Origin: Vicinamibacterales bacterium | GTDB taxonomy: Bacteria; Acidobacteriota; Vicinamibacteria; Vicinamibacterales; CAVVIG01 | NCBI GenBank assembly: GCA_036848175.1 | Contig: DAIUKO010000006.1 | Span: 1-62,284, forward strand | Reading direction: 5' to 3' | DNA: 62,284 nucleotides | Shown here: positions 3,889-59,404 of the stretch, one piece after another | Position numbering within the stretch: the first letter of the stretch is position 1 | How the letters are laid out: the number at the start of each line of letters is the position of its first letter | Translations under genes and position numbers: made by a program | Notes under the pieces: generated by a model | What the model was told of the DNA's origin: nothing | Database searches by the model: none | The model's input: only the letters and a program-made list of their open reading frames with translations

Positions 3889-3892
3889 ATCC

Positions 3893-4837: not shown

Positions 4838-5661
4838 CAGCGCGCCTCCAGCGCGGCGATCAATCGCTCGGCATCCTGCGCGGTCACTTTGTTCTGATGG
4901 TGCCAGGCCATGTTGTTCTCGGCAAACGCGACCCCCTTGCCTTTGACCGTGTGGCAGACGATCGCCGACGGCTTCGAGGGGTCGAGCGGGACGCGGGCCA
5001 GCACCTCGCGAAGCTCGCCGACATCGTGGCCGTTCACGTCGACCGCGGCGAAGCCGAACGCACGCCATTTGTCGGCGAGCGGCTCGAGATTCTGCACGTC
5101 GGCCGTCGCGCCGTACGACTGATGCTTGTTGTAGTCGGTGAGGACCACGAGGTTGTTCAGGCGATGCTTGCCGGCCGACAGTGCCGCTTCCCAGATCGAT
5201 CCCTCGTTCGACTCGCCATCGCCGATGACAACGAAGGTGCGGTATGACGCGCGCTCGTAGCGGGCGTTCAACGCGAAGCCGAGCGCGATCGACAGTCCGT
5301 GTCCGAGGCTGCCGGTGGACGCCTCGACGCCGGGAATATGGTGCTCGGGATGACCGCCGAGGAGCCCGTCGCTCTTGCAGAATTTCCAGAGCTCCGCCTC
5401 GGGGAAGAAGCCCTTGTCGGCGAGGATCGCGTAGAGCGCGAGGCAGCCGTGCCCCTTGCTGAGCAGGAATCGGTCGCGCTCGGGCCATCGCGGGTTCTTC
5501 GCGTCGTAGGTCATCACGTCGTCGTAGAGCACGCGCAGGATCTCGACGAGCGAGAACGCGGCGCCGACGTGCCCGCGCTGGCCGGCCTCGAGCGTCCGGA
5601 TGATCGTCCGGCGGAGCGCCTTCGAGCGCGCATCGAGCGGAATTGTCAGAGGATCGGTCAT
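4837..5661 (-). CDS. transketolase, N-terminal (ThDP-binding) subunit
   Basis: 274-aa ORF with GHVGAAFS and GDGESNEGSIWEA ThDP motifs. Confidence 0.9.
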   Translation of the reverse strand: MTDPLTIPLDARSKALRRTIIRTLEAGQRGHVGAAFSLVEILRVLYDDVMTYDAKNPRWPERDRFLLSKGHGCLALYAILADKGFFPEAELWKFCKSDGLLGGHPEHHIPGVEASTGSLGHGLSIALGFALNARYERASYRTFVVIGDGESNEGSIWEAALSAGKHRLNNLVVLTDYNKHQSYGATADVQNLEPLADKWRAFGFAAVDVNGHDVGELREVLARVPLDPSKPSAIVCHTVKGKGVAFAENNMAWHHQNKVTAQDAERLIAALEAR

Positions 5662-5662
5662 G

Positions 5663-6715
5663 TCAGGACAGAAATGCGTTGTCGGCGTACGCGCCGGCCA
5701 GGCCGGCGACGAACGTGCGCGCTTTCGCGAACTGCGTCGTTCGCCGATCGCCGTCGGACTGCGACGCGCGCTCGGGGAGAAAATCGTTCAACAGAATCGC
5801 CGTCCACTTGAGGCCGAACAGGGGATACACGACGCGGGCTCGCGCGGGGAGCGAGCGCACATCGGCAAACGCCGCGAGTGCCCGCTCGGCGAACCGATGC
5901 TTCAGCCGATCGTCGAGCGCCATGCCGGGGTGAAGCAGGTAGTCGACGATCGTCTTCGCCGGATCGTCCCAGCCGAAGTACTCGAAGTCGACGAAGGCCA
6001 GCGATCCATCGGGCCGGCGGATGACGTTGTGAAAGCCGAAGTCGGACGGGCTCAGCGTTCGCGCCTCTCGATCGATCGGATCGTCGAAGCCAATCCCGCA
6101 CGACCCGGCCGTTCGGGCGCACCATTCGACGATTTCATCTCTGAGCGGCGCGAAGGTGGCATCGATCCAGTCATGGAGCCGTCGGGCGACATCATCGCCT
6201 GCTGACGTCGCGCTCCGCAGGCGAGCGACGCGCTGATCCACGCTCGCCACGATCTCGCCGAGCGTGAAGCACGCCTCGGAAGCCGGCCGCACGGCTTCGC
6301 TTCCCCTCGCGCCGCGCAGCTGCCTGAGCGCGGCAAGAAAGGCGACCGACGCGTCGACGTCCTCCGCGGTGGCGGCGCCCGGCGACACCGGTTCCCCGGC
6401 AATGAATTCGTAGATGGCGCACTCGCGATCGGGAGCGACGGCAATCGGGCGAGGAACCGAGCGCATGCCATTCTGCCACAGAAACTTCAGCGTCCCGAAC
6501 TCGGTGCCGAGCCGATCGCGAACGTCGCCGGCGTCGCGGCGGTAGAACTTCACGACGACCTGCGCAGGCTCGTGGCGCACGCCGTCGCCGAGCTCGACAC
6601 GAAACACACGACTGTTTCGGCCCGTGCCGATCGGCGCCGACGCGGCGACGTCACGGCTGAGCGCGGTGCGACAGATCGCCTGCAGGTCAGGCGCGATGGT
6701 CGAAGAAATATTCAC
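5663..6715 (-). CDS. aminoglycoside-phosphotransferase/choline-kinase-fold kinase
   Basis: 350-aa ORF with kinase-fold catalytic and Mg loops SDFGFHNVI and FVDFEYFGWDDP. Confidence 0.8.
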   Translation of the reverse strand: MNISSTIAPDLQAICRTALSRDVAASAPIGTGRNSRVFRVELGDGVRHEPAQVVVKFYRRDAGDVRDRLGTEFGTLKFLWQNGMRSVPRPIAVAPDRECAIYEFIAGEPVSPGAATAEDVDASVAFLAALRQLRGARGSEAVRPASEACFTLGEIVASVDQRVARLRSATSAGDDVARRLHDWIDATFAPLRDEIVEWCARTAGSCGIGFDDPIDREARTLSPSDFGFHNVIRRPDGSLAFVDFEYFGWDDPAKTIVDYLLHPGMALDDRLKHRFAERALAAFADVRSLPARARVVYPLFGLKWTAILLNDFLPERASQSDGDRRTTQFAKARTFVAGLAGAYADNAFLS

Positions 6716-8477: not shown

Positions 8478-9476
8478 CTACTTGAGATCGAGCGCCTGCA
8501 TCGTCTTGATGTTGTAGTAGCGGATGTCCGTCATCGGATTCGGAATCCGGCCCGCGTCGAAGCTCTCGACGAGCCCGCGCACAGCGTCTTCGATCGTGCG
8601 CGCCGGCGCGAAGCCGAGCTCGCGGCGGATCTTGTCGGAGGAGATGTGATAGGACCGGTTGTCGTCGCTCGGCGTCGTGACGATCTCGGTCGACCGTCCG
8701 ACCACCGATCGAATCGTCTCCGCGAGCTGCGTCACCGTGTGGTTCTCGTAGCCGGCGTTGAACGTCTGGCCGGCAACCTGCTCGGCCGGCGCGTCGAGCA
8801 CGCGTAGATAGACGTCGGCCATGTCGGCGATGTGGATGTTCGGCCGCTTCTGGCTCCCGCCGAACACGGTGATGCGGCGCGCGTTCACCGCGTAGTTGGT
8901 CAGGATGTTCACGGTCAGGTCGAGCCGCAGCCGCGGCGAGTAGCCGCAGACGGTCGCCGGCCTCAGCACGACGGTCGTGAAGCCGGGCGACTGCTCCTTC
9001 AGCAGCACCTCTTCACAGAGCGCCTTGTACTTCGAGTAGTCGGTCAGCGGCTCGAGCGCGAGCTTTTCAGTGACGCTTTCCTCTGACTTCACGCCGTAGA
9101 CGCTCGATGAAGAGGCGTAGATGAATCGCTGGACGCCGCTGTCCTTCGCGACGGCGACGAGGTCGAAAAACGCATCGTAGTTGATCGACTTGCCGAGCTC
9201 GGGATTCAACTCGAAGCTCGGATCGTTGGAGATGCAGGCGAGGTGAACGACGGCGTCGCAGCCCGGCATCACGCGTTCGAGCAGACGACGATCGCGGATG
9301 TCGCCCTTGACCTGCTCGAGTGCCGGACGATCGGCCACGCTCTTCAGGACGTCGTCGCCGTACAGGTAGAGATCGAGCACGCGAACCTGATAGCCGCGGT
9401 CGAGGAGTTGCGGAACGAGGATGGCGCCGACATAGCCGGCGCCGCCGGTGACGAGAACTCTCTTCAGTAAGGTCAT
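8478..9476 (-). CDS. NAD-dependent sugar epimerase/dehydratase (extended SDR)
   Basis: ORF 8478..9617 trimmed to ATG 9476 (MTLLKRVLVTGGAGYVG...). YSKYK (YxxxK). Confidence 0.9.
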   Translation of the reverse strand: MTLLKRVLVTGGAGYVGAILVPQLLDRGYQVRVLDLYLYGDDVLKSVADRPALEQVKGDIRDRRLLERVMPGCDAVVHLACISNDPSFELNPELGKSINYDAFFDLVAVAKDSGVQRFIYASSSSVYGVKSEESVTEKLALEPLTDYSKYKALCEEVLLKEQSPGFTTVVLRPATVCGYSPRLRLDLTVNILTNYAVNARRITVFGGSQKRPNIHIADMADVYLRVLDAPAEQVAGQTFNAGYENHTVTQLAETIRSVVGRSTEIVTTPSDDNRSYHISSDKIRRELGFAPARTIEDAVRGLVESFDAGRIPNPMTDIRYYNIKTMQALDLK

Positions 9477-9498
9477 GCGTTTCAGGTCGCGCGGGTGT

Positions 9499-10287
9499 TC
9501 AGCCCTGATCGCGCCGGTAAAGACGTTTCTCCGGCGGCTGATACCACTCGTCAAGCGAAGCCGGCACGCGTGCGTTGTAGCCAAGCAGCTGACGAAGCTC
9601 CGGCGCCAGCGAGTCACCGCGCTCGTAGCCGAGCGCGCGCGGATAGTCCAGCTGCTGTTTCACGAACGGTCGTGTGAAGGCCAGGGTCAGCGCGCGACGC
9701 GATCGGTCGGTGCGGTTGACGCCCGCCGCGTGCCACAGATTGGAGTTGAACACGACCACCGAGCCCGCGGATCCGGTCGCGCGCGCCGCATCGCGGAAGA
9801 ACGCATCGTCGGTCGGCGGCGTCGCCAGCCGATGCGATCCGTTCAGGAAGTAGGTCGCGCCGTTCTCCTCCGTGAAGTCGTCGAGCATGACCAGCAGCTG
9901 CACCATCAGGTGGAGATCGTCCGAGAACGTCCGCTGATCGCGATGCACGCGGCCGACGTACGAGACGTTGGTCGGAAGGTTGAGGACGCCGCCGAAGGTA
10001 TTGAGGATGTAGGGGCCGTCGAAATACCGTTCGAGCAGCGCACGCCCCGGAAGCCAGGCGAGCAGCTCGAGAAACGCGCCGCCGGCGCACGGCAGGTGAT
10101 GCACCGTCCCGTCAGCGCCATCACCGACGCCGTTTCGCAGCTGGATGGCGCGCTGCTGCGCGTACGCCGCTTCGAGCTCGCGTGCGAGACGATCGACGAA
10201 ATCTCGCGGCAGCGCAGACGGCAGCAGCGTCCAGCCGCGTTCACAGAGCGCGCGCTCGTGCGCGCTATCGAACGCCGGCTGCGACAA
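9499..10287 (-). CDS. phytanoyl-CoA dioxygenase (PhyH)-family Fe(II)/2-oxoglutarate dioxygenase
   Basis: 262-aa ORF. Facial-triad candidates VHRD and NLWHAAG in a beta-rich protein. Confidence 0.75.
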   Translation of the reverse strand: MSQPAFDSAHERALCERGWTLLPSALPRDFVDRLARELEAAYAQQRAIQLRNGVGDGADGTVHHLPCAGGAFLELLAWLPGRALLERYFDGPYILNTFGGVLNLPTNVSYVGRVHRDQRTFSDDLHLMVQLLVMLDDFTEENGATYFLNGSHRLATPPTDDAFFRDAARATGSAGSVVVFNSNLWHAAGVNRTDRSRRALTLAFTRPFVKQQLDYPRALGYERGDSLAPELRQLLGYNARVPASLDEWYQPPEKRLYRRDQG

Positions 10288-11431
10288 GCGCCTCCGAGAT
10301 CGTGTTCGTCACCAGCTCGATGTCCGCCTCGCTCATCGTCGCCCACAGCGGCAGGCGCAGCAGCCGATCGGCGGTGCGCTCGGTGACCGGCAATGCGCCG
10401 GCCGTCCGCGTGTACTTGCGGCCGGCCGGCGACGAGTGGAGCGGCACGTAGTGGAAGACCGCGTCGATGCCGGCACGCCGTAAAAACGCCTGCACCGCGG
10501 AACGGTGCGAGAGGTCGTCGAACAGCAGATAGTAGAGGTGCCCGTTGTGGCCGCATTCGGCTGGCACGATCGGCCGCCGCACCAGGCCCTTGCGCTCCCA
10601 CTCGGCAAACGCGTCGTGATACGTCGCCCACACCTCGAGCCGCCGATCGGTGATCGCGTGTGCGGCTTCGAGCTGCGCCAGCAGGAAGGCGGCGGTGATT
10701 TCGCTCGGCAGATACGACGATCCGATGTCGACCCATGTGTATTTGTCGACTTCGCCGCGATAGAACTGGGTCCGGTTGGTCCCCTTCTCCCAGAGGATTT
10801 CGGCGCGGGCCGACCAGCGCGCCTCGTTGACGATCAGCGCGCCGCCTTCGCCGGCGACCACGTTCTTGGTCTCGTGAAAACTCAGGGCCGCGAGATCGCC
10901 GAGGCTTCCGAGCGGGCGGCCGCGATACGTGGCGAGCACGCCTTGCGCCGCGTCTTCGACGACGAACAGACCGTGCCGCCGCGCGACCTCGAGAATGCGA
11001 TCCATCTCGCAGGCGATGCCGGCGTAGTGAACGGCGACGATCGCCTTCGTCTGCGGCGTGATGGCCGCCTCGATCAGCGAATCGTCGATATTGCACGTAT
11101 CGTGGCGGATGTCGACGAACACCGGCGTCGCACCGCGCAGGACGAAGGCGTTCGCCGTCGACACGAACGTGAACGACGGCATGATCACTTCGTCGCCGGG
11201 TCCGACGTCGGTGAGAATCGCGGACATCTCCAGCGCCGCGGTGCACGAATGCGTGAGCAGCGCCTTCCCGACCCTCAGCTGCTCCTCCAGCCAGCGATGG
11301 CACTTCGCGGTGAACGGACCGTTGCCGGCGAGATGGTGATTGGCGATCGCATCGCGGACGTATTCCAGCTCGCGGCCGCCGACGAGCGGCCGATTGAACG
11401 GAATGATGGCGCGGCGGATTGGTCCGGTCAT
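10265..11431 (-). CDS. wecE: dTDP-4-keto-6-deoxyhexose 4-aminotransferase (DegT/WecE family)
   Basis: 388-aa ORF, colinear with E. coli WecE as I remember it: IPFNRP, SCTAALEM, MPSFTFVSTANAF, PLP-lysine context SFHETKN, EKGTNRTQF, FHYVPLH. Confidence 0.85.
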   Translation of the reverse strand: MTGPIRRAIIPFNRPLVGGRELEYVRDAIANHHLAGNGPFTAKCHRWLEEQLRVGKALLTHSCTAALEMSAILTDVGPGDEVIMPSFTFVSTANAFVLRGATPVFVDIRHDTCNIDDSLIEAAITPQTKAIVAVHYAGIACEMDRILEVARRHGLFVVEDAAQGVLATYRGRPLGSLGDLAALSFHETKNVVAGEGGALIVNEARWSARAEILWEKGTNRTQFYRGEVDKYTWVDIGSSYLPSEITAAFLLAQLEAAHAITDRRLEVWATYHDAFAEWERKGLVRRPIVPAECGHNGHLYYLLFDDLSHRSAVQAFLRRAGIDAVFHYVPLHSSPAGRKYTRTAGALPVTERTADRLLRLPLWATMSEADIELVTNTISEALVAAGVR

Positions 11432-12423
11432 GCCCAGGCCGAAGGCCGCGGCGACTCGTCGCGCTCCTCGGACGCGGCGAAGACGTTCTTCGTTTCACGG
11501 ACGACGAAGATCGGCCGGTGCTTCACCTGCTCGAACACACGGCCGATGTAGAGCCCGATGACGCCAAGGCCGATCAGAATCAGGCCGCTGAGAAAGAGCT
11601 GGCTGATGGCGAGGCTCGTCCACCCCAGCGCCAACTGACCGACATTGCTGGTGAAGTAGTGGACGATCAGCCACACCCCGAGCACGAACGAAAAGAGCGA
11701 CAGCACGGTGCCGACGTAAATCGACAGATGCAGCGGCTTCTCCGAGTAGGTCAGCGCGATGGTCAAGGCGTGACCGAGCAGGCGCCACGTCGTGTACGAG
11801 CTCTTCCCGCCTGGCCGTTCGTGGTGCTCCACGTCCACGTAGCCGCGCGAGAATCCAAGCCACTGCAGCACGACGACGTAGCCGCGGCGGTAGTCGCCGA
11901 AGTGGAGAAACGCCTCCACCACCTTGCGCGAGACGATTGAATACGATCCGATCTTCGGGTCGTAATCGATGTCCGCCAGCCAGCGGAACAAGGCGTAGTA
12001 GGTCCGCGCCGTCAGATTCTTCCACCAGCTGTATCGCCGCACCCGTCGGCGCGCGAAGACGATGTCGAAGCCGTCGCGGCACTTCGCGTAGAGATCGGGG
12101 ATATGCGCCGGATCGTCCTGCAGGTCGCAGTCGAGGACGACCACGTAGTCGCCGCGCGCGTGATGCAGCGCGGCAGTGATCGCCGGATGCTGGCCGAAAT
12201 TCCGGCTGAGTCGAACGCCTTTGACGCGCGGATTGCGATCGCACTCGCGCGCGATTGCCGTCCACGAATCGTCCGGGCTGCCGTCTTCGACGAGCAGCAC
12301 CTCGTAGTTGTCGGTGATGCGCCGCGCCGCGGCGCAGATGCGATTCACGAGCTCGCCGACGAGCGGCGCGGTCCCGTAGACGGGACTCGCGATCGAGAGC
12401 AATGGACGCTCCGGTTCGCTCAT
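11428..12423 (-). CDS. GT2 polyprenyl-phosphate sugar synthase (GtrB/ArnC architecture)
   Basis: ORF 11428..12501 trimmed to ATG 12423 (MSEPERPLLSIASPVYG...). VEDGSPDDSW, DCDLQDDP, and two C-terminal TM helices. ATGA junctions at both ends. Confidence 0.85.
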   Translation of the reverse strand: MSEPERPLLSIASPVYGTAPLVGELVNRICAAARRITDNYEVLLVEDGSPDDSWTAIARECDRNPRVKGVRLSRNFGQHPAITAALHHARGDYVVVLDCDLQDDPAHIPDLYAKCRDGFDIVFARRRVRRYSWWKNLTARTYYALFRWLADIDYDPKIGSYSIVSRKVVEAFLHFGDYRRGYVVVLQWLGFSRGYVDVEHHERPGGKSSYTTWRLLGHALTIALTYSEKPLHLSIYVGTVLSLFSFVLGVWLIVHYFTSNVGQLALGWTSLAISQLFLSGLILIGLGVIGLYIGRVFEQVKHRPIFVVRETKNVFAASEERDESPRPSAWA

Positions 12424-13343
12424 CGCGTCAGCACCGCGAGGCCCAGGCCGTCGCGGCCGTAGTGATTGCCGCAATAGAGCATGTAGAGCGCGTCCTTCCA
12501 CCGAAAGACGTGGCTATAGCAGATCGATTCGCTGTCCCAGCCGCTCGCCGAGACGTCGATGCCGGCCAGATCGTCGCGGCGGATCCAGTCGATGCCGTTC
12601 TCGGACCAGGCGTAGCCGATGCGGTACGCCTCGCCGCGATGGCTGAACCACATGTGATAGACGCCGTCGTCGAACAACACCGACGGCCGGCTGATCGAAT
12701 ACTCCGACGGTGACGCCGCGTCGATACACACGCGGTTGGGCCGCGTCCAGTGGATCCCGTCCGACGATTCCGCGAACTTGATGACGTAGACGTGCTTCGG
12801 ATCGGCGGCGGTTCGACCCCAGCGCCGAAACGAGGTGTACCACATCCGCCATCGATCCGCCCTGTGCATCACCGCCGTCGAACCGATTGAGAGAAAATCG
12901 TCGTCGGTCCGCTCGAGAATCGGCGCCCGCGACCACCGCTGCCACGCGCCGCCGCCGTTTCGCACCGCGAGGCCGACGTGATTCTGGAACGGCGTGAGGA
13001 CCGATGGCATCCACCCGACGTAATACATGAACTCCACGCCGCCAGCGGTGACGATCCAGGGATACGAGACGCCGTTCTCGTCGAACGCGCCCAGCTCACC
13101 GATGTCGAACACCGGCGCCGCCGAGATCGCAACCGGTGTCGCCGGCCGATCGGGATCGATCGTGATCGTGCCGATGCGCGAACGATTCTGCGAATCGCGT
13201 CCGGTCACGTAGATCTCAACGACGCCTGCGTCGTCGCGCGGCACGGCGAACGATGGGCCGGTGTAGGTCGCCATCCATTCGCGCGCGGCGTCGGGCTCGA
13301 GGATCCGGCCGAGCTTCTTCCACCCGCCTCTGGCATTGCGCAT
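12420..13343 (-). CDS. five-bladed beta-propeller, glycoside-hydrolase/phosphorylase-like (GH43/GH32/GH130 clan look)
   Basis: 307-aa ORF with repeated aromatic blades MYYVGW, WRMWYTS, YHMWFSH, YMLYCGN. The exact family cannot be assigned by eye. Confidence 0.65.
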   Translation of the reverse strand: MRNARGGWKKLGRILEPDAAREWMATYTGPSFAVPRDDAGVVEIYVTGRDSQNRSRIGTITIDPDRPATPVAISAAPVFDIGELGAFDENGVSYPWIVTAGGVEFMYYVGWMPSVLTPFQNHVGLAVRNGGGAWQRWSRAPILERTDDDFLSIGSTAVMHRADRWRMWYTSFRRWGRTAADPKHVYVIKFAESSDGIHWTRPNRVCIDAASPSEYSISRPSVLFDDGVYHMWFSHRGEAYRIGYAWSENGIDWIRRDDLAGIDVSASGWDSESICYSHVFRWKDALYMLYCGNHYGRDGLGLAVLTR

Positions 13344-14326
13344 CAGCCTCGACGCCGCTCGGACGCGACCGGGCTCGCGTCGAGCGCGTGCGCGATGATC
13401 CCGCGGACGTAGTCCACGCGCTCACGGTCGGCGGCATCGAGCGGTTCGTGCTTGAATCGTCCTCGACCGTCGGCGACGCCGAAGATCATCGTCGGCCGTC
13501 GAATGTCGTCGACGATCACCGCTCCCGACGGCGCCAGGAGACCGCCGGCGACGACGTCCACGTCGCGGAGACGGACACGCCCCATGTGCTGCGTCACCAT
13601 GTTGTCGGTTTCGAGCATCCGGACGATTCCACTCGAAATCCCGGCGCGGTTGTCGAGCCGATAGAGCGAGAATCCACGCGTGCGCGCCAGATCGGCGGCG
13701 TCGGCGGTGAGATTCCCGATGCCGAGGTCGTAGATCGACGCACCTGGCGGCAGCCGCCCGACGAGCGAGGCGTCGACGCTTTCCCGCTTCTGCGACGTGC
13801 CGAGGACGATCGACGCGTCGAGGCGCGACGCGCGGGGATCGGCCTCGACCATCGACGCCCCGATTCGTGGAAGGACCGATGCGAACGTGTCCGCAAGCGG
13901 ACCGTCGCCGCACAGGACGACGCGTTTGTCGCTGAGCCCGTGTTCCAGCCGCTGGACCATGTCGAGCGCGGAGTCGAACCACACCTGGTTGTCGCTGAAG
14001 AACAGCAGACGTTCTGGCGCGACCGACGACCGCGCCGTCCTCACGATCGCCGCCGATTCGGGCAGCTTGCGATCGCAGTCGACGGCGATCCAATTGAACG
14101 GCCCGGCCGCGTCGAGAACCGACTCCAGATCGCGCGCGGCGCCGAGCTCGACGAAGGCCAGGACGTTGGCGATGCTCTCGCGGACCGGCGGAAACGAGAC
14201 GCCGGAGTCGGCCGGCACCGGAAACTGCTGCACGACCAGCACCGTCGCCTTGTTCGTCCGCGCGGCGAGGCTGGCCACGTCGTCGAATCGTGCTCGCAGC
14301 GCCGCGGCCTGCTCGGCCGGCCACAT
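13343..14326 (-). CDS. hypothetical protein with central nucleotide-binding-like stretch
   Basis: ORF 13343..15523 trimmed to ATG 14326 (MWPAEQ...), 5 nt after the aldolase stop. KRVVLCGDGPLADTF. No family recognised. Confidence 0.65.
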   Translation of the reverse strand: MWPAEQAAALRARFDDVASLAARTNKATVLVVQQFPVPADSGVSFPPVRESIANVLAFVELGAARDLESVLDAAGPFNWIAVDCDRKLPESAAIVRTARSSVAPERLLFFSDNQVWFDSALDMVQRLEHGLSDKRVVLCGDGPLADTFASVLPRIGASMVEADPRASRLDASIVLGTSQKRESVDASLVGRLPPGASIYDLGIGNLTADAADLARTRGFSLYRLDNRAGISSGIVRMLETDNMVTQHMGRVRLRDVDVVAGGLLAPSGAVIVDDIRRPTMIFGVADGRGRFKHEPLDAADRERVDYVRGIIAHALDASPVASERRRG

Positions 14327-14331
14327 GAACG

Positions 14332-15366
14332 TCAGCTCCAGGTCTTGTGAAAGAACTTCGGAAAATGAATCTCGACGCGGCCGTTCTGCTTCAACTGCGC
14401 GGCGACTTCTTCGACGAGCGCCTGCGACGGGTTCTCCTTCGCGTAGCGGCTGACTTCGAGAATCAGATCCTGATAGGGCACGCCGTACGCGGCGGCGACG
14501 TCCTGCACGCGCTTGGTGAATCCGCTGTGAAACAGCGCGAAGCCGTAGATCAGCTCGAGCTCGTTGGCGCCTTTCAATCGCGTCGGCTTGGGGCTCACGA
14601 AGCGCTCGGCGATTTTCGCGACATCGAGCGGACTGATCCCTGTCGGGTAGCCCGCCTTCTCGAGAATCACGAGCATCGTTTCGGTCTGCGCATTGCCGCC
14701 GCCCCGTCCCATGCCGAGCAGCGTCGTGTCGATGACCGTCGCCCCCGCCTCGACCGCCGCGAGGCTGTTCGCGTTTGCGAGCAGCAGGTTGTTGTGGCCA
14801 TGAAATCCGACAGCGGCGTGAAGACCGGCTTTCAGCACTTCGACGTACGCCGCCACCTGGTTCGGCAGCATCCCACCCGCGCTGTCGACGACGGTCACCG
14901 CGGTCGCGCCGCGGTCGACAATCGGTATGGCACGGTGCAGCAGCTCGAACGGCGCCGCCGCGTACGACTTCATGAAGTTGTAGAACACTTCGAAGCCGAG
15001 CGACGAGGCGAGCTCGACGAATGCCCACGCCGACTCGCTCTTCGACACGTCGGTGCCGACGCGGACGAAGTCGCCGCCGCCGTCGCGAAAGCGCCGCAGG
15101 TCGTCGGCCTCTCCGACGCCAGGAATGAAGAACGCGCCGATGCGCGCGCGACCCTTCGCCGCGGATGCGAGCGCCGCCATCTCGTCGTCCGAGCAGCGCG
15201 CCGGCGTCGACGTCTTCGAGGCGCCGAGACCGAGTCCGTGGCCGATCTCGATGTACTCGAAGCCGGCGTTCGCGAGCCCGCGTACGATTTCGGTGATCTC
15301 GTCCGGCGGCCATTGGAAATCGATCGCGTATCCGCCGTCTCGAATCGTGCACTCGAGAATCTTCAT
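14332..15366 (-). CDS. HMGL-like / DmpG-like aldolase (pyruvate-carboxyltransferase TIM barrel)
   Basis: ORF 14332..15492 trimmed to ATG 15366 (MKILECTIRDGGY...). CTIRDG and GFHGHNN motifs. Confidence 0.8.
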   Translation of the reverse strand: MKILECTIRDGGYAIDFQWPPDEITEIVRGLANAGFEYIEIGHGLGLGASKTSTPARCSDDEMAALASAAKGRARIGAFFIPGVGEADDLRRFRDGGGDFVRVGTDVSKSESAWAFVELASSLGFEVFYNFMKSYAAAPFELLHRAIPIVDRGATAVTVVDSAGGMLPNQVAAYVEVLKAGLHAAVGFHGHNNLLLANANSLAAVEAGATVIDTTLLGMGRGGGNAQTETMLVILEKAGYPTGISPLDVAKIAERFVSPKPTRLKGANELELIYGFALFHSGFTKRVQDVAAAYGVPYQDLILEVSRYAKENPSQALVEEVAAQLKQNGRVEIHFPKFFHKTWS

Positions 15367-16658
15367 CGGGCCGCTTCGCTCCGCTCGAGCGGCGCGACGG
15401 GCGCGACGTCGCGCGCATGCTCGTAGTCGAGCCTGATCGATCCGCGGACCTCCGCGAGCGTGCGCTGAACAGCCTCGCGATCCGCTCCCCACGCCAGCAC
15501 GTGACCCGGACGGCTGCGGCCATCGCGCACCTCGTCGATCGTGTCGCCGGGCACGCGCTCCACGCAGACGTCGATGACGCCGGGCAGCCGCTTTGCCGTG
15601 TCGACGCCTCTGACGGCGACGATGCGGCCGCGAGGAAACATCAGAAAGTGCAGGGCGCCGTCGAGCGCGCGCGACGGCTGAATCCGCGTCGTCAACCCGA
15701 ACGCCTGGCGGATGACCGCGCGGACCACGTCGACGCCGGTCAGCACCGGCATCAGGTGCGTCGCCACCTTGCTGCCGCAGCCGCGGACTGCGAACTCGAT
15801 CAGGTAGACCGTTTGCGTGTCACGAGAGACGAGAAACTCGATGTGAAGGATCCCGTTGACGACCTCGAACCCGCCGGCGATCCGTCGCACGAGCGTATCG
15901 ATGTCGCGACGAATCGATTGGTTGTACGCACCTGGGTAGCGCAGCTCGAGGTCGTAGCGATCGGGGAGCGGCGACTTCGTCTTGTCGCAGACGCCGAGAA
16001 TGCTCACCTCGCCGTTCTGCACGAGCGCTTCGATCGATCCTTCGTCGCCGACGAGAAACTGCTCGACGAGCGCCTCCCCGCAGCGCGACGCGGCAATCGC
16101 CGACGCGGCGGCCGGCGCCACGTCCGACAGCCGCTCGACCCAGCGCACGGCCCGGCTCGAACAGTTGTCCACCGGCTTGACGATGACCGGCAGCGAACGT
16201 CGATCGACCGCTTGCCGCGCCTCGTTCGCGGAGCGCACGCGGCGATACCAGGGACAGGCAATGCCGAGCCGTTCGCTTCGCTGCCGCATCAGGAACTTGT
16301 TCGTCGCATGCGCGGCGAGCGTGGTCGAGTGGCCGGGAAGGCCGAGCTGCTCGACGACGAAGGCTGCGGTTGGCACACCGATGTCGGCGGAGGTCAGCAC
16401 GCCGTCGACGCGGGCGCGGCGGGCCAACGCCAGCGTCGCTTCGCGATCCTTCAAATCGATCGCTTCGAAATGATCGGCGTCTGCGGCCGCGTTCGCATCG
16501 GCCGACCAGTCGGTGACCCACGTCTCGAGCCCCAGCGCACGCGCGCGCCGCACGTATTCGAGCTGCCACAAGCCGCCGCCGAGAATGAGCAGCCGCTTGC
16601 CGGCAAGCTCCGGATCGCGGTCCGTCGACAGCTTCACGGGATTGACGTCAATCGCCAT
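15363..16658 (-). CDS. ATP-grasp domain ligase
   Basis: ORF 15363..17282 trimmed to ATG 16658 (MAIDVNPVKL...). PVIVKPVDNCSSRAV, LVEQFLVGDEGSIE, YLIEFAVRG. Confidence 0.8.
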   Translation of the reverse strand: MAIDVNPVKLSTDRDPELAGKRLLILGGGLWQLEYVRRARALGLETWVTDWSADANAAADADHFEAIDLKDREATLALARRARVDGVLTSADIGVPTAAFVVEQLGLPGHSTTLAAHATNKFLMRQRSERLGIACPWYRRVRSANEARQAVDRRSLPVIVKPVDNCSSRAVRWVERLSDVAPAAASAIAASRCGEALVEQFLVGDEGSIEALVQNGEVSILGVCDKTKSPLPDRYDLELRYPGAYNQSIRRDIDTLVRRIAGGFEVVNGILHIEFLVSRDTQTVYLIEFAVRGCGSKVATHLMPVLTGVDVVRAVIRQAFGLTTRIQPSRALDGALHFLMFPRGRIVAVRGVDTAKRLPGVIDVCVERVPGDTIDEVRDGRSRPGHVLAWGADREAVQRTLAEVRGSIRLDYEHARDVAPVAPLERSEAAR

Positions 16659-17449
16659 CACGCCGGTGAGCCGGTGGTGATCGGAAACATCCGGTCGAGA
16701 TTTCGATGCGCGATGTTGGCCCATTTCTCCGGCGCCAGACCATCGGCGAGCTGTTCCGCGCGGTGAAATGTCTCGGCGGGCGTGTACTCGGGCATGTCCG
16801 ATCCAATGACGATCCGCTGATCGAGCCGTCCCATCACCCAGCGCAGGTCCGCATCGAGGGAGCTGCCCGCGTAGCGAAGCAGCGTGAACGATAGATCGAG
16901 CGTCAGCGCGCCATGCAGCCTGACGACTTCGGCCACGTCGAGCAGTGCCGCGCCGCCGCCGTGCAGCAGCACCATCGACGCGCCCGCGCACCGGTGCGCG
17001 ATGCTGTCGATGATGTCGGCCGCGTAGCCGGTCGATCGGGACGGTTGGCGGAACAGCGTGTCCAGAAACACGATCAATCCCTGCTCTGCTGACGCGGCGA
17101 TAGCCCGCAGGCACTGCGCGCCGAGCGGATCGTAGCCGTTCAACCGCGGATGAAGCTTGATCCCGGCGAAGCCGTCGCGCCGCGCGCGCGCAACCTGATC
17201 GGCGATGCCGCTCTCGTCTCTGGCGCTCGAGGGATCGATCCCGGCGATCGGGACGAGGCGTCCGTTCGCGGTGCGGGCGCACTGCAGCACGTAGTCATTG
17301 TCGACGACACCGGCCAGTCCGACGAGGCAGGCGCGTGAAACGAGGGCACGATCCAGCTCCGCGATCAGCCGCGCGTAGCTCGCATCGTCGCGGCCGTTGA
17401 TCCACGTCCCGTCGCGGGTTACGTGCACGAGGGAATCGAACCGCGTCAC
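16658..17449 (-). CDS. amidohydrolase-2-type metal-dependent hydrolase (TIM barrel)
   Basis: ORF 16658..17926 trimmed to GTG 17449 (VTRFDSLVHV...; GTGA with the upstream stop). SLVHV, IKLHP, VLLHGGG, IGSDMP. Confidence 0.7.
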   Translation of the reverse strand: MTRFDSLVHVTRDGTWINGRDDASYARLIAELDRALVSRACLVGLAGVVDNDYVLQCARTANGRLVPIAGIDPSSARDESGIADQVARARRDGFAGIKLHPRLNGYDPLGAQCLRAIAASAEQGLIVFLDTLFRQPSRSTGYAADIIDSIAHRCAGASMVLLHGGGAALLDVAEVVRLHGALTLDLSFTLLRYAGSSLDADLRWVMGRLDQRIVIGSDMPEYTPAETFHRAEQLADGLAPEKWANIAHRNLDRMFPITTGSPA

Positions 17450-18240
17450 GCCGGCAGGGTCACGGCGTTGCCAATCGCCGTGTTGCCGGCGACGCGGTTC
17501 ACCGCGAACAACATCATCCAGCGGCCCGCGAACGTCGTCCATTTCATCGGCGCGTCGGGATCGATGGCCGCGACGCCGTGCGGACACGCCGCGTTGAAGT
17601 AGACGACGTCGCCGGGCTCGGCGAGATCGTCGATGACCAGGTCGCGTCCGTCGGCCATCTGCACGAACAAGCCGCCAGACTGGAAGTCGACGCCCTTGCG
17701 CGTCATCTGCATGATCGGCACCGTCAGCTGGTGGTAGTCCACCGGGTCGGCATGCCGCGCGAGAAAGCCGCCGCCGCGCGGGTACACCTGGAACGCGATG
17801 CGGGCGGTGCAGCCGTCCTGCGGCGCGAGACTGAGAAAGCTGTCGGCTGGCAGCCCGCTCAACCGATTCTTCATGTGGTAGATCGGCGCGCACAGCGTGA
17901 ACAGATCGAACGGGTCCTGATTCCACGGGAAGAACACGAACTGATGGAAACTGCCGGGCACGTAGGCGCGGCTGTCGTTCCGGTTCATCCGATGGAAGTT
18001 CGGCGCGCCCGCCTGGATTGGCGCGTAGTTGGGCAGCGATCCGCGGCCGACGCCCTCGAGGTAGCCACGGATCTCCTGCAGCAGCGCCGCGTCGAACTGG
18101 CGCCGCGCGATGTAGATGTCGCCGGCGGCGATGTCCGCTCTCACCTGCTGCAGCCGCGCATCATCTGAGAGGAGTGCACCGGCATCGTCGATCCACTGCA
18201 GATGCCGGCCGGCCAGCGTGATCGGAGTCGAGGGGCTCAT
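17446..18240 (-). CDS. putative Fe(II)/2-oxoglutarate oxygenase (cupin/DSBH-like)
   Basis: 264-aa ORF with HxD...H candidates ARHADPVD and ACPHGV. ATGA with the upstream stop. Confidence 0.6.
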   Translation of the reverse strand: MSPSTPITLAGRHLQWIDDAGALLSDDARLQQVRADIAAGDIYIARRQFDAALLQEIRGYLEGVGRGSLPNYAPIQAGAPNFHRMNRNDSRAYVPGSFHQFVFFPWNQDPFDLFTLCAPIYHMKNRLSGLPADSFLSLAPQDGCTARIAFQVYPRGGGFLARHADPVDYHQLTVPIMQMTRKGVDFQSGGLFVQMADGRDLVIDDLAEPGDVVYFNAACPHGVAAIDPDAPMKWTTFAGRWMMLFAVNRVAGNTAIGNAVTLPA

Positions 18241-19949
18241 CGGTAGTGCGCGAGGCGCCGTTCGGGATCCATGCTGCGGTCCAGCGATCGCGAGAATTCA
18301 TCGGCGAGCTCGACGCGGAACACATGAATCCGTCCGAGGTACGTGTGCGGAGAGACGTACGACGTCGCCTCCACGATTCGAATCTCGGGGTCGGTCGTCG
18401 GGAACGACTTCACGAAGCGCATGTAGTCGTACAAATCCGAGTAGTCGCCGTCCCAGGTGACGATCCATCGCGGATTGAGAAACACGATCTTCTTGAGATA
18501 GGCCAGCGACGAAGGATTCGGGGCGACGGCGCGCTTCGCCGCCAGCGCCGCATCGAACGATGCCGGCCACATCCCGGCGAAGTAGCGCTCGCCGCCGTAG
18601 GTGACGACGTGATACGGCGGGCTCAGGTAGGTTCCGAACGGGCTCGGGCAGTAGACGCGGTCGGCGGGTTTGGCGCCGGCCGACAGCATCGCGCCGTTCA
18701 GCTCCGCGCGAAATCTGCCGTATTCCGCGAACTTGAACCCGTTGTGCAGTCGCTCGGCGGCAACCGTCGTGTCGTGGGCGGCGATGAACATCGCCACCGC
18801 GAGCGCGACCGCGCCGGCCGTCAACGGCGTCGAGTGCTGGACCTCGAACCACGCGCGGACTGGGAATAGCAGCATCGACACCGACAGCGCCAACGCCAGG
18901 TACCAAGCCGATCGATAGATGACCGTGTAGCTGCCGACGAAATTCTTCAGGAACAGCCAGTCCATGATGAACGACAGCGCGAACGCGACGGACAGAACGA
19001 TGACCCCGTGGAGATACACTCGGAGCGTTGGCCACGAGGGCAGCCGATCGCGCATGGCCGCCGCGACGAGGCCGACCATCACACCGGGCAGCGCGTAGGC
19101 GAAATGGACGTTGGCAAAGTGCTCCCAGACCGGCTGCGCCGACGACAGCAACTCGCCAACGCGTCCGGCCGCCGCCATCTCGTACCGCTGCGGCCACGCG
19201 ACGTTGCCGGTCGCCGCGTTGCCGAGCATCTGCACCACGATGTTCCGCCAGTCATCCGTCGCAGCGAAGTATCCGTAGAGAAGCGCCGGGATCGCACAGG
19301 GCGCGAGGAACGCAGCGGCATGCCGCACATCGAGCAGGTCACGAAAATGGATGGCCACGAACAGCACGAAAATCGGCAACAGCACGATCGCCGCAGCGGG
19401 ATGCGTCAACGCGCAGACGATCGCGCCGGCGCTCGCCGCGGCGAGCACGACAGGCCGGTGGTTGCGCCATACGTGCCACTCCAGCAGCATGACCGTGGCG
19501 GCGAAGTATCCGAACGCGGCGGTCATTTCCGGCCGGCCCGCGAGCGCGGCGGCAATCACCAACCGATCGGAGACAAACGCCGCGACGAAGACGAGTCCGA
19601 TCACGAGGTCGCCACGGTAGACCGCGTAAGCCATCGCCGACGCGATCAACAAGGCGAAATGAAAAATGTTGGCCAGCGCGATCGACTCGGAACGTTCACC
19701 GTACAGCCGGATCAAGGCGGCGTGAACGGTCGCGTAGTAGTACATCGTGAAGTTGTAGGTGCGGTGCGCGATGTTCAGGCCGGATCCCATCAGCGGCGAC
19801 CCGAAGTCGCCGGCGCGGACGAGACTGAACGACGGATAGGTGTATTCGTAATCGTCGTGCATGAACAGCGGGACGACGCCAAGGCTGGTGATGCCGCCGA
19901 ATACGATCACGAAGGACAACAATCCAGCCGCAGTGGCGCGCGCCCTCAT
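18237..19949 (-). CDS. GT-C-like polytopic membrane glycosyltransferase (ArnT/PMT-like)
   Basis: ORF 18237..20201 trimmed to ATG 19949 (MRARATAAGLL...; ATGA). Many TM helices, acidic HDDYEY in the first loop, and a soluble C-terminal domain. Lies directly downstream of a polyprenyl-P-sugar GT2. Confidence 0.75.
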   Translation of the reverse strand: MRARATAAGLLSFVIVFGGITSLGVVPLFMHDDYEYTYPSFSLVRAGDFGSPLMGSGLNIAHRTYNFTMYYYATVHAALIRLYGERSESIALANIFHFALLIASAMAYAVYRGDLVIGLVFVAAFVSDRLVIAAALAGRPEMTAAFGYFAATVMLLEWHVWRNHRPVVLAAASAGAIVCALTHPAAAIVLLPIFVLFVAIHFRDLLDVRHAAAFLAPCAIPALLYGYFAATDDWRNIVVQMLGNAATGNVAWPQRYEMAAAGRVGELLSSAQPVWEHFANVHFAYALPGVMVGLVAAAMRDRLPSWPTLRVYLHGVIVLSVAFALSFIMDWLFLKNFVGSYTVIYRSAWYLALALSVSMLLFPVRAWFEVQHSTPLTAGAVALAVAMFIAAHDTTVAAERLHNGFKFAEYGRFRAELNGAMLSAGAKPADRVYCPSPFGTYLSPPYHVVTYGGERYFAGMWPASFDAALAAKRAVAPNPSSLAYLKKIVFLNPRWIVTWDGDYSDLYDYMRFVKSFPTTDPEIRIVEATSYVSPHTYLGRIHVFRVELADEFSRSLDRSMDPERRLAHYR

Positions 19950-20908
19950 ACCACGCGGGCATCCGACGCGACGGCCGGCAAGCCGACGCTCTCCCAGACG
20001 ATCGACGACGGGCGCAGCCGCACTTCGTCGTAAATGCGGCCGACGTATTCGCCGAGGATGCCGAGGAACATCAGCTGCACGCCGCCGAAGAACACGAGCG
20101 CGGCCGCGAGAACGAGCCGCGAATCGGCGACGGCGGCGATGCCGATCACCCGAGCCATCAACAGCGCCAGCGATGCCACCGACGTCGCCACGCCGACCCA
20201 TGCCGCCAGTCGAAGCGGAAACATCGAGAACGAGAGCAGCCCGTCAATCGCCAGTTGCACCAGCTGGCGGAGCGTGAACTTCGGCTCGCCCGCGGCACGA
20301 TTGGCGCGCGCGTAGGGCACGCCGATCTGTTGAAAGCCGACCCAGGCTCTGAGGCCGCGGAGGAACCGGTTCCGTTCCGGAAGTGCGTTCAGCAGATCCG
20401 CGACCTTCCGATCGACGAGGCAAAAATCGCCCGAGTCGAGCGGAATGCGAATCTCGGCGATGTGCGCGAGCAGACGGTAGAACGTATCGTAGGCGAGGCG
20501 CTTGGCGCGGCCTTCTTTGCGGTGACACCGGATCGCGTAGACGATCTCGAATCCTTTGCGCCACTCGGCGATGAACGTCGCGATGAGCTCTGGCGGATCC
20601 TGGAGATCCGAATCCATGATCACGACCGCCGAACCGGTGGTGTGCTTCAGCCCGGCGGAGATCGCCGCCTGGTGGCCGAAGTTTCGCGACAATCGAAGGC
20701 CGCGCCATCGTGGATCCCGTCGATGCTGATCCCGAATCATCTGCCATGTCTCGTCGACCGATCCGTCGTCGACGAGAAGGATCTCCCACGGCATATCCCA
20801 TGCTGCGGCCGATCGCTCGAGCCGCTCGATGAACAGCGGCAGGACCACCGCTTCGTTGTAGCAGGGTGCGACAACCGACAACGTATCCAGACCGTTACCT
20901 GACCACAT
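19946..20908 (-). CDS. GT2 polyprenyl-phosphate sugar synthase (ArnC/GtrB architecture)
   Basis: 320-aa ORF with APCYNE, VDDGSVDETW, DSDLQDPP and two C-terminal TM helices. Confidence 0.9.
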   Translation of the reverse strand: MWSGNGLDTLSVVAPCYNEAVVLPLFIERLERSAAAWDMPWEILLVDDGSVDETWQMIRDQHRRDPRWRGLRLSRNFGHQAAISAGLKHTTGSAVVIMDSDLQDPPELIATFIAEWRKGFEIVYAIRCHRKEGRAKRLAYDTFYRLLAHIAEIRIPLDSGDFCLVDRKVADLLNALPERNRFLRGLRAWVGFQQIGVPYARANRAAGEPKFTLRQLVQLAIDGLLSFSMFPLRLAAWVGVATSVASLALLMARVIGIAAVADSRLVLAAALVFFGGVQLMFLGILGEYVGRIYDEVRLRPSSIVWESVGLPAVASDARVV

Positions 20909-25474: not shown

Positions 25475-26049
25475 CGGCGCAAGTACAGGCGCAGTGACTT
25501 GATGGTGACGCGCGACTCGCCCGCCGCGTTCCTGTTCGCGATCGTCACCATCAGCGACCGGCGGAATCCGAGGAGGGCCGAGTTCAACCCCGAAAACGGG
25601 CCCGTGCTCTGTGACGAGTTGATCGCGATCCACTCGCCGCCTTGTTGAATCCCGATCGTCACGCCGCCCCGCTCGACGTCGGCGTCGAACTTGATCCCGG
25701 CCGTATGTGCGCCGTTGGCGCGGATCGTGGCGAAGGCCTGATATCCATACGGCTCGTCGCTGGTCGTGAGCGTGAGCGCGCCTTCGCGGAGTTCGAAGAT
25801 TCGTGGATGGACCGTCTGCCACGGCAGCGTGGTGAGGTCGTAATCAGGATTCACCGGCGCAGCCTGAAGAACGTTGGTGCTGTTGTACCACCACGACAAG
25901 CGCGCCAAATCCAGGTATTGCGACCACAGCAGCCAGAGTCCGGCGGCGGCGATGGCGAGCGTCGCGAACCCGCGCAGCCGGCTCAAAAGCAGTCTTCCCG
26001 TCCTTCCAGCCACGACGCGTGCCACAGCACTGCGTTCAACACGGTCCAC
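25471..26049 (-). CDS. membrane-anchored protein with C-terminal beta-rich domain (paralogue 2)
   Basis: 192-aa ORF with a single TM (ATLAIAAAGLWLLW), then ...GGVTIGIQQGGEWIA...STGPF...TIANRNAAGES...LRLYLRR. The alternative TTG start at 25986 would form a TTGA overlap with the asnB-like stop. Confidence 0.7.
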   Translation of the reverse strand: MDRVERSAVARVVAGRTGRLLLSRLRGFATLAIAAAGLWLLWSQYLDLARLSWWYNSTNVLQAAPVNPDYDLTTLPWQTVHPRIFELREGALTLTTSDEPYGYQAFATIRANGAHTAGIKFDADVERGGVTIGIQQGGEWIAINSSQSTGPFSGLNSALLGFRRSLMVTIANRNAAGESRVTIKSLRLYLRR

Positions 26050-39863: not shown

Positions 39864-39897
39864 TGGAGTTATTAGCGGCGCTGAATCAACATGATAT

Positions 39898-39933
39898 TTC
39901 TCTGTGTTCTTTGTGTTCTTTGTGTCCTTTGTG
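39898..39933. repeat. 4 tandem copies of a 9-bp unit (TTCTTTGTG-like) in a low-GC spacer
   Basis: ttctctgtg ttctttgtg ttctttgtg tcctttgtg, read directly between the SxtK-like stop (39937) and the carbamoyltransferase TTG (39863). Confidence 0.9.
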
Positions 39934-39936
39934 CTG

Positions 39937-40095
39937 TTAGAACAGCGTGTAGATGAAGGGTGCAACGGCGCTCGACTGTGAGAACACGATCAGCAAGCCG
40001 AACAGCACGAAGACGACGACGATCGGCACGAGCCAGTATTTTTTTTCCTGGCGCAGGAACATCCAGAACTCCGACAGGACTCGACCCTTGCTCAT
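39937..40095 (-). CDS. small single-TM peptide, DUF5989/SxtK-like
   Basis: Internal ATG 40095 of ORF 39937..40224: MSKGRVLSEFWMFLRQEKKYWLVPIVVVFVLFGLLIVFSQSSAVAPFIYTLF. Family resemblance is from memory. Confidence 0.7.
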   Translation of the reverse strand: MSKGRVLSEFWMFLRQEKKYWLVPIVVVFVLFGLLIVFSQSSAVAPFIYTLF

Positions 40096-40102
40096 AACAT
40101 CC

Positions 40103-40516: not shown

Positions 40517-40523
40517 CGATCGA

Positions 40524-53809: not shown

Positions 53810-53829
53810 GAGTAGTCTCGTTCAACTCG

Positions 53830-58544: not shown

Positions 58545-58547
58545 CAG

Positions 58548-59387: not shown

Positions 59388-59404
59388 AGTAGAGTAGCGC
59401 TCGC

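Follow-up and report, generated by a model that had tools for sequence, protein, structure and literature searches.

What do the five tightly coupled genes at positions 13343-18240 of contig DAIUKO010000006.1, from a Vicinamibacterales bacterium, build, and onto which molecule is the product placed? The window, as the term is used here, is the whole 62,284-nt stretch of this contig, and its open reading frames (ORFs) were scanned for families against Pfam, NCBIfam and the PDB. A first-pass annotation, made from the letters of the sequence, had described the five genes as a tailoring cassette for a surface glycan. The analysis presented here identifies a four-gene core that recurs across phyla in glycan loci, accompanied by a WecE-type aminotransferase in all 15 loci with long flanks, and in which a class II pyruvate aldolase with an exchanged catalytic pair stands next to, or is fused to, a member of a new dehydrogenase-like protein family. 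The preferred explanation, which is given an even chance of being correct, is that the aldolase-dehydrogenase pair makes an acyl group derived from a 4-hydroxy-2-oxo acid and that an ATP-grasp ligase links it as an amide to a dTDP-4-amino-4,6-dideoxyhexose, replacing WecD-type acetylation. In transcription order, the five genes are as follows.

17446..18240, minus strand: protein with the fold of Fe(II)/2-oxoglutarate (2OG) oxygenases, 264 aa, an accessory member of the module
16658..17449, minus strand: Amidohydro_2 (PF04909) TIM-barrel protein, 263 aa with a GTG start, a core member
15363..16658, minus strand: ATP-grasp enzyme of the L-amino-acid ligase (LAL) type, 431 aa, a core member and the sole candidate for the amide-bond former
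14332..15366, minus strand: DmpG/BphI-like class II pyruvate aldolase with a swapped catalytic pair, 344 aa, a core member
13343..14326, minus strand: two-domain Rossmann dehydrogenase-like protein of a new family, the partner of the aldolase, 327 aa, a core member

All five lie on the minus strand at the coordinates of the first-pass annotation, whose account of the junctions is likewise reproduced: GTGA, TGATG (a 1-nt overlap), ATGA and a 5-nt gap. The coupling extends in both directions. Upstream, an ATGA overlap joins the oxygenase gene to a gene for a polytopic, GT-C-like membrane protein; downstream, TGATG, ATGA and ATGA lead into the genes for a propeller protein (whose start overlaps the stop of the partner gene), an ArnC-like GT2 and WecE. 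The five genes therefore form part of a longer operon with at least nine translationally coupled genes. The cassette ORFs are regarded as genuine genes and not chance ORFs because of their codon-position GC content (GC3 of 0.82-0.88, GC2 of 0.45-0.50) and their hundreds of homologues. The three genes downstream are the following.

12420..13343, minus strand: GH130-like five-bladed beta-propeller, cytoplasmic, 307 aa, a near-core member
11428..12429, minus strand: ArnC/PgfS-like polyprenyl-phosphate glycosyltransferase (GT2), 333 aa
10265..11431, minus strand: WecE, dTDP-4-keto-6-deoxyhexose 4-aminotransferase, 388 aa

The extent of the module emerges from 80 related loci (cited by number, L001 and onwards) that were fetched by gene look-up and pattern scans; the window proteins were mapped onto 71 of them, with L072 added later. 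The ATP-grasp, aldolase and partner genes are contiguous in every locus with enough flank among these 71. Among the 15 long loci, defined by about 5 kb or more on both sides, the ATP-grasp, the aldolase, the amidohydrolase and the WecE-type aminotransferase each occur in 15/15, the propeller in 13/15 and the oxygenase in 11/15, being absent in 4/15. This neighborhood check bears out the proposal of a co-conserved tailoring cassette, for which a lack of co-conservation had been named as a refuting outcome, and redraws its borders. The invariant core, always found in glycan loci, consists of four genes (ATP-grasp, amidohydrolase, aldolase and partner) and not five; the oxygenase is accessory. 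The module also takes in WecE, the propeller and the ArnC-like GT2, whose gene follows that of the propeller in the majority of related loci. In the close clade the amidohydrolase gene precedes that of the ligase, in the distant clade it follows that of the partner, and L072 has the gene set split across two divergent operons. Since gene order varies by clade in this way, it is the gene set that is under selection, not a synteny inherited by recent descent. The fusion-type loci, in which aldolase and partner form one protein, also hold an LAL-type ATP-grasp and an Amidohydro_2 gene, again in glycan loci, surrounded by radical-S-adenosylmethionine (radical-SAM) enzymes, methyltransferases, an RraA-like gene or an AsnS-like gene.

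The related loci come from very different lineages (Acidobacteria-type, Verrucomicrobia and Bacteroidales-type). Named carriers are metagenome-assembled genomes (MAGs) assigned to Acidobacteria gp6, 'Chloroflexia', Spartobacteria and Paludibacteraceae, and a scan of representative genomes returned 3 MAGs only. Neither partner-protein clade has a match in plasmids, and E. coli genomes show no match at the DNA level. The module is confined to uncultured soil, gut and rumen-type bacteria.

Most close relatives carry two genes that the window lacks: a SAM methyltransferase (220-235 aa) between partner and propeller and, behind the GT2, a further oxygenase paralogue (~244 aa, 33% identical). Examples are L001:10960-11622 and L001:13529-14263, with equivalents in L008, L009 and L020. 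Directly after WecE, the window has a PhyH-family 2OG oxygenase (9499-10287) and a short-chain dehydrogenase/reductase (SDR) of the epimerase/dehydratase type (8478-9617), both within 8478-10287 on the minus strand. This pair is kept after WecE in L004, L013, L015, L020, L022, L028 and L048, and the module may extend past WecE to include it. In L001, the ATP-grasp (L001:7688-8964) and a UDP-sugar dehydrogenase (L001:1915-3307) are each split into two ORFs, which are probably assembly frameshift errors rather than real pseudogenes.

The aldolase matches HMGL-like (PF00682) with 109 bits (4e-31), contains the motifs CTIRDG and HGHNN and can be aligned from end to end with the solved 4-hydroxy-2-oxovalerate aldolases 4jn6, 4lrs and 1nvm (E values of 1e-40 to 1e-49, ~35-40% identity). 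The score is above the cutoff of the PRK08195 subfamily model (265 bits against 229) and below that of the TIGR03217 equivalog (227 against 286). The Asp/His/His metal site and the enolate-stabilizing arginine are kept, with R9, D10, H189 and H191 invariant in 44/44 cassette-linked homologues. The catalytic pair of this enzyme group consists of a histidine and a tyrosine, H20 and Y290 in BphI, corresponding to H21 and Y291 in DmpG. In the same 44/44 homologues the two are exchanged, DmpG His21 being replaced by Tyr13 and DmpG Tyr291 by His280, and the same swap motifs are found in 42/42 aldolase-partner fusions. The 'putative aldolase' 3dxi from Bacteroides shares the exchange at the first position.

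The 327-aa protein had been listed as having no recognizable family, which holds at the level of sequence: it has zero matches in Pfam, NCBIfam and the PDB. Its predicted fold and its genomic company point, however, to a dehydrogenase-like partner of the aldolase. An AlphaFold model (pLDDT of 90) retrieves FolD, glutamate dehydrogenase, DpaA (dipicolinate synthase A) and shikimate dehydrogenase in Foldseek, with modest scores (E of ~1e-5, TM of 0.3-0.45) and a common two-domain fold. A profile of the family searched against 1.84 billion representative proteins finds at least 736 clusters (50% identity) at E<=1e-3, and 131 at E<=1e-30. Of the best 150 representatives, 42 are aldolase-partner fusions of 655-708 aa in which a full-length Tyr/His-swapped aldolase carries a full-length partner domain at its C terminus; one such fusion has a weak AlaDh_PNT_C match. 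Remote full-length relatives (hhalign probability of 99.9%) show the canonical GxGxxG loop and weak Shikimate_DH, NAD_binding_2 or 2-Hacid_dh_C matches, whereas the window protein has GDGPLA where the glycine-rich loop sits.

Remote homologues also occur outside the cassette. At L073:8001-9062, L074:8001-9062 and L075:8001-9128, they lie between an amine-oxidase/NeuB/SAF fusion and a CMP-sugar synthetase, with a class III aminotransferase and an SDR upstream; these loci look like an uncharacterized nonulosonic-acid-type pathway. Two proteins of ~800 aa, P0384 and P0403, have an N-terminal B12-binding/radical-SAM-like domain (CxxxCxxC) fused to the same dehydrogenase-like domain. The partner family is repeatedly tied, through adjacency or fusion, to enzymes that make 4-hydroxy-2-oxo acids (the aldolase and NeuB). 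These ties point to the partner as a probable dehydrogenase-like companion of the aldolase, with a role comparable to that of DmpF, membership in an unrelated family and putative cofactor use. Its reaction could be the reduction or amination of C-2, the oxidation of C-4 or the supply of the aldehyde.

The ATP-grasp enzyme contains LAL_C2 (73.7 bits against a cutoff of 29.4, E of 1.5e-20), ATP-grasp_4 (49.8 bits) and ATPgrasp_N domains, and among solved structures it is closest to the L-amino acid ligase BL00235 (3vot, E of 9e-14). Grouping with a housekeeping family had been named as an outcome that would count against the cassette; the enzyme stays far under the cutoffs of the PurK, PurT, Ddl, carbamoyl-phosphate synthase and carboxylase models, and likewise far under that of every named LAL equivalog model. 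By these profile matches, it is L-amino-acid-ligase-like and not of a housekeeping type. The Pfam and NCBIfam scores also uphold the calls of a PF04909 hydrolase and a DmpG/HMGL-type aldolase in the first-pass annotation. The amidohydrolase passes PF04909 with 42.2 bits against a cutoff of 26.4 (E of 1e-10), and a profile built from 10 family members has a sole match in the PDB, the uncharacterized amidohydrolase 3irs (E of 3e-7). The usual motif of the amidohydrolase superfamily on strand 1 is HxH. It is not found here; instead, strand 1 reads FDSLxH (D5-x3-H9) in 10/10 aligned members. Invariant among these members are K98, H100, H163, D185 and D218, the last being the strand-8 aspartate in an invariant GSD218 motif.

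Predicted structure was also needed to confirm the call of a putative Fe/2OG oxygenase. By sequence, the protein gives a sub-threshold Cupin_2 match only and no match to a Pfam 2OG family. Its AlphaFold model, built with 25 homologues (pLDDT of 94), has IPNS, P4H, DAOCS and HSL1 as top Foldseek matches (E of 6e-8 to 1e-6, TMq of ~0.5), and the facial triad H163-x-D165...H221 as well as R240, a candidate for the arginine that binds the C5-carboxylate of 2OG, are invariant in the 25 homologues. A double-stranded beta-helix fold with an iron triad is thus supported by the model; the use of 2OG is putative, and IPNS, the top structural match, does not use it. An assignment as a cupin-fold sugar isomerase or epimerase of the FdtA or RmlC type was tried and rejected, as the fold search returns the 2OG/IPNS superfamily only. 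The propeller is GH130-like by profile against the PDB, with the beta-1,2-mannoside phosphorylases 9fj8 (8e-12) and 7fip (1e-10) aligned over ~120 residues; it matches NF052550 at 1.8e-8, far under the cutoff.

The aminotransferase indicates where the acyl group might go. The window enzyme scores 590 bits on the WecE equivalog NF008687, for which the cutoff is 375, and five other aminotransferases from divergent cassette loci reach 509-565 bits; all those tested pass. In the distant-clade loci L002 and L007, whose partner proteins are 28-33% identical, the gene order is RmlA, RmlC, RmlB, propeller, ligase, aldolase, partner and amidohydrolase, followed by WecE, a WecF-like GT56, Wzx and an EpsG-type polymerase, with WecD absent. 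In gene content, these loci correspond to the Fuc4NAc branch of enterobacterial common antigen (ECA) with the cassette in the place of WecD. In L064, RmlA directly precedes the ATP-grasp. The case for a link between the cassette and a WecE-made 4-amino sugar, which the first-pass annotation had suggested, is strong: WecE equivalogs are found in 15/15 long loci, and some cassettes lie between RmlA/RmlB and a WecF-like transferase. The window cassette itself sits inside a Wzm/Wzt-type polysaccharide locus, and the ArnC-like GT2s and the membrane protein would fit a transfer of the finished sugar to undecaprenyl phosphate for decoration in the periplasm. That no acetyltransferase had been recognized also holds, as neither a GNAT nor a hexapeptide acetyltransferase is present among the window ORFs scanned, a set that does not include all small ORFs.

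A multistep pathway can be proposed on this basis. WecE would make dTDP-4-amino-4,6-dideoxyhexose. The aldolase and its partner, probably a physical complex like DmpG-DmpF, would build an acid derived from a 4-hydroxy-2-oxo acid from pyruvate and a presumed acceptor aldehyde. The Amidohydro_2 enzyme would then process this acid and may act as a lactonase, hydratase, decarboxylase or cyclase. The LAL-type ATP-grasp would activate the carboxylate of the acid and join it to the 4-amino group of the sugar, in place of WecD-type N-acetylation. Optional hydroxylation would be the task of the 2OG oxygenase, and in relatives SAM or radical-SAM methyltransferases could add optional methyl groups; these tailoring steps might precede or follow ligation. 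The last step would be the loading of the sugar onto undecaprenyl phosphate by the ArnC-like GT2, for periplasmic addition to an ABC-exported polysaccharide, while in Wzy-type relatives the WecF-like GT56 would use the dTDP-sugar directly.

Several observations weigh against this pathway. L002 has a hexapeptide acetyltransferase 6 kb away, and a bona fide RmlA or RmlB is absent from the window. The fusion-type locus L079 is without a DegT-family gene within 10 kb and may use another amine acceptor. Near several loci stand genes for UDP-sugar dehydrogenases and AsnS-like amidotransferases, which makes a link to uronates possible. In the Bacteroidales-type clade, the partner has a degenerate glycine-rich loop, so that NAD(P) binding may not be universal. 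The pathway leaves both the propeller and the amidohydrolase without an explained role, and the searches linked no member of the module to a cultivated bacterium or to a glycan of solved structure.

The uronate link leads to a different explanation, considered unlikely here, in which the cassette makes an amine or amino acid from the aldolase product by reductive amination through the partner, and the ATP-grasp joins it to the carboxyl group of a uronate or to another glycan carboxylate, the WecE sugar being a separate residue of the same repeat unit. Genes of the UDP-glucose/GDP-mannose dehydrogenase family adjoin the cassette in L001, L007 and L064, and O-antigens commonly carry amino-acid amides of uronic acids (PMC10609480). 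The enzymes themselves lend this some appeal, L-amino-acid ligases normally acting on amino acids and the partner fold being amino-acid-dehydrogenase-like. The parallel drawn in the first-pass annotation, the glucuronamide ligase of Campylobacter capsules, needs correction, however: the characterized uronamide ligase Cj1438C is a TupA-like ATP-grasp and belongs to another subfamily (PMC11800379), and L064 has its own separate TupA-like gene. WecE is adjacent in 15/15 long loci, whereas a uronate dehydrogenase is not, and no UDP-sugar 6-dehydrogenase lies near the cassette in the window. A further proposal, less probable still, involves the propeller: it would free a deoxy-amino aldose from its nucleotide, and the aldolase would condense this aldose with pyruvate to a 3-deoxy-2-ulosonic acid to be tailored by the partner, as an aldolase-based analogue of the NeuB pathway. 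GH130 relatives do work on sugar 1-phosphates, the products of DmpG-type aldol reactions are formally 3-deoxy-2-ulosonic acids, and full-length remote homologues of the partner are placed between NeuB fusions and CMP-sugar synthetases. Yet no cytidylyltransferase is co-conserved with the cassette, and the co-conserved ArnC-like and WecF-like transferases use nucleoside-diphosphate hexoses. This proposal also leaves the ATP-grasp without an obvious role, and the propeller on which it depends is missing in L063, L064 and the fusion-type loci.

The placement of a subfamily-level 4-hydroxy-2-oxovalerate aldolase (above the PRK08195 cutoff) beside a hydrolase would also be compatible with a catabolic meta-cleavage-type set that, together with a housekeeping ATP-grasp, lies inside a glycan locus by chance. 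This is effectively excluded by the conservation of order and coupling across phyla, always in glycan loci, by the absence of DmpF, hydratase and ring-cleavage genes, and by the aldolase itself, which misses the TIGR03217 equivalog (227 vs 286), has its catalytic His and Tyr swapped and occurs fused to the partner. Two other candidates were rejected. A pairing of the pyruvate-carboxylase kind, with an ATP-grasp biotin carboxylase and an HMGL carboxyltransferase, does not agree with an LAL-type ATP-grasp, a DmpG-type HMGL protein and the lack of a biotin carrier, and for a phosphonate pathway with an HMGL-like synthase, no phosphoenolpyruvate mutase is found among the window ORFs scanned.

If the N-acylation of the WecE-made sugar is taken as the preferred reading, the nature of the acyl group can be narrowed further, though only as a doubtful proposal. 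The aldolase and partner would form a new aldolase-dehydrogenase machine that, with the ligase, the amidohydrolase and neighboring C-methyltransferases and amidotransferases, builds branched hydroxy-oxo-diacid or substituted 5-oxoprolyl (pyroglutamoyl) N-acyl groups on amino sugars. Many N-acyl groups are known on 4-amino-4,6-dideoxyhexoses, substituted pyroglutamoyl included; the viosamine of Vibrio anguillarum V-123 carries 2,4-dihydroxy-3,3,4-trimethylpyroglutamoyl, and 3-hydroxy-methyl-5-oxoprolyl groups are found in Vibrio cholerae O5 and Plesiomonas O74 (PMC10609480). No description of biosynthetic genes for these groups was found in the literature. Hints in this direction are an RraA-like gene (HMG/CHA aldolase, oxaloacetate decarboxylase fold) between the LAL-type ligase and the amidohydrolase at L077:6041-6715, B12-type radical-SAM genes in L079 and L080, and AsnS-like genes adjoining the cassette in L008 and L080. 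L077 also has a class IV aminotransferase fragment upstream.

The genes upstream of the cassette provide its context on the other side.

18237..19949, minus strand: polytopic membrane protein, possible GT-C, 570 aa from the likely start at 19949
19946..20908, minus strand: second ArnC/PgfS-like GT2, 320 aa

Both GT2s are related to polyprenyl-phosphate glycosyltransferases. The one at 11428..12429 matches Glycos_transf_2 at 8.5e-26 and scores 186 bits on PgfS and 156 bits on ArnC, both sub-cutoff; the second matches Glycos_transf_2 at 6.6e-30 and PgfS with 236 bits. As listed, the membrane ORF has 654 aa (18237-20201) and runs 255 nt into the GT2 gene upstream of it. Translation probably begins at the ATG at 19949, which gives 570 aa and ATGA overlaps at both ends. 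The protein has at least 7 hydrophobic segments and is co-conserved in L048 alone. The first-pass annotation had placed the cassette between a GT2/GT-C module and the propeller, GT2 and WecE genes; the placement is right, while the GT-C label is without family support, the protein having no Pfam match even at E<=1.

The window holds further glycan genes. At 52059-55397 on the minus strand lie genes for NeuB (52778-53809), a NeuC-like UDP-GlcNAc 2-epimerase (53880-55397) and a CMP-sugar synthetase (52059-52895), so that a sialic-acid-like sugar is encoded in the locus as well. These genes are followed, at 55103-59432, by those for an aldehyde dehydrogenase, a transketolase and an SDR. Two ABC-transporter ATPases with Wzt C-terminal carbohydrate-binding domains are encoded on the minus strand at 29285-31936 and 47175-49437, one adjoining Wzm, which suggests that the 62-kb stretch either serves two glycans exported by ABC transporters or carries its export system in duplicate. 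A NodU/CmcH-type carbamoyltransferase adjoins a small SxtJ-family protein at 37923-40534 (minus strand). AsnS-like amidotransferases are found at 25983-27983 and 45293-47173, and in L008, L034, L065 and L080 the gene just upstream of the cassette is AsnS-like. The stretch at 2195-6715 (minus strand) is another sugar-tailoring block, with a split transketolase (3893-5661), an APH-family kinase (5663-6715), a zinc alcohol dehydrogenase (2195-3493) and two methyltransferases. The window contains no tRNA genes.

Every component of the module belongs to or resembles a known superfamily, and glycan tailoring cassettes and amide decorations made by ATP-grasp enzymes are known as such. New are the combination of genes, the partner family with its fusions, the swapped active site of the aldolase and the implied CoA-independent N-acylation of a dTDP-amino sugar. 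In agreement with the first-pass annotation, which had not recognized the combination as a described pathway, no published description of the module was found in the literature searched, and papers on Plesiomonas and Tenacibaculum O-antigens are silent on genes of this kind. The antigenicity of bacterial surfaces and their recognition by phages and the immune system are shaped by the non-acetyl N-acyl groups of amino sugars. To our knowledge, the routes to such sugars use acyl-CoA or acyl-carrier-protein transferases. The pathway proposed here, if true, would be a CoA-independent ATP-grasp route with the acyl group made on the spot by C-C bond formation from pyruvate. The module further defines an unannotated protein family (at least 736 clusters), a DmpG-type subfamily with swapped acid/base residues and a natural aldolase-dehydrogenase fusion, the last of which is useful in enzymology and biocatalysis. 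The glycans of the carriers, uncultured soil, gut and rumen-type bacteria, are essentially uncharted.

Among known systems, the Fuc4NAc branch of ECA shares the WecE equivalog with the module, and Bacteroidales-type relatives add RmlA, RmlB and a WecF-like GT56. The module differs in having, in place of WecD, the four-gene core with or without the propeller, and its GT56 scores 132 bits against a WecF cutoff of 457. The Arn system (Ara4N; ArnB, ArnC and ArnT) follows the logic proposed for the module, with a DegT-family aminotransferase, an N-acylated amino sugar and an ArnC-like GT2, and the module has a candidate GT-C nearby. Contrary to Arn, the module is without a formyltransferase or deformylase, its sugar would be a dTDP-6-deoxyhexose, its GT2 is below the ArnC cutoff and its GT-C is unconfirmed.

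The C-terminal ATP-grasp domain of Cj1438 from Campylobacter jejuni, the capsule glucuronamide ligase, also decorates a surface polysaccharide with an amide (PMC11800379). That domain is TupA-like (PF14305) and activates the carboxylate of a sugar, in contrast to the LAL-type cassette ligase with its link to an amino sugar. L-amino acid ligases such as BacD/YwfE, BL00235, RizA and DdaF share the ATP-grasp core and LAL_C2 with the cassette enzyme and are its best solved and NCBIfam relatives. The latter is far sub-equivalog, and its gene context points to the amine of a nucleotide sugar, instead of a second amino acid, as the probable nucleophile. The LigJ/LigK pair of protocatechuate 4,5-cleavage, an Amidohydro_2 hydratase with an HMG/CHA aldolase, resembles the module in combining a PF04909 enzyme with a pyruvate aldolase, and one related locus has an RraA-like protein of the LigK fold. 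This similarity is at the family level only; the first-strand motif of the cassette amidohydrolase differs, and its context is biosynthetic.

The closest parallel to the aldolase and its partner is found in DmpG-DmpF, BphI-BphJ and HsaF-HsaG. The cassette aldolase has the same HMGL-like TIM barrel with a DmpG communication domain, the same metal ligands and the same enolate-stabilizing arginine, and in every case its partner, adjacent or fused, is a predicted Rossmann protein of the NAD(P) type. It departs from these enzymes in carrying tyrosine for H21 and histidine for Y291. The cassette partner belongs to a family unrelated to DmpF, with no homologue of the DmpF-type acylating aldehyde dehydrogenase present, and the context of the pair is glycan biosynthesis instead of aromatic or steroid catabolism.

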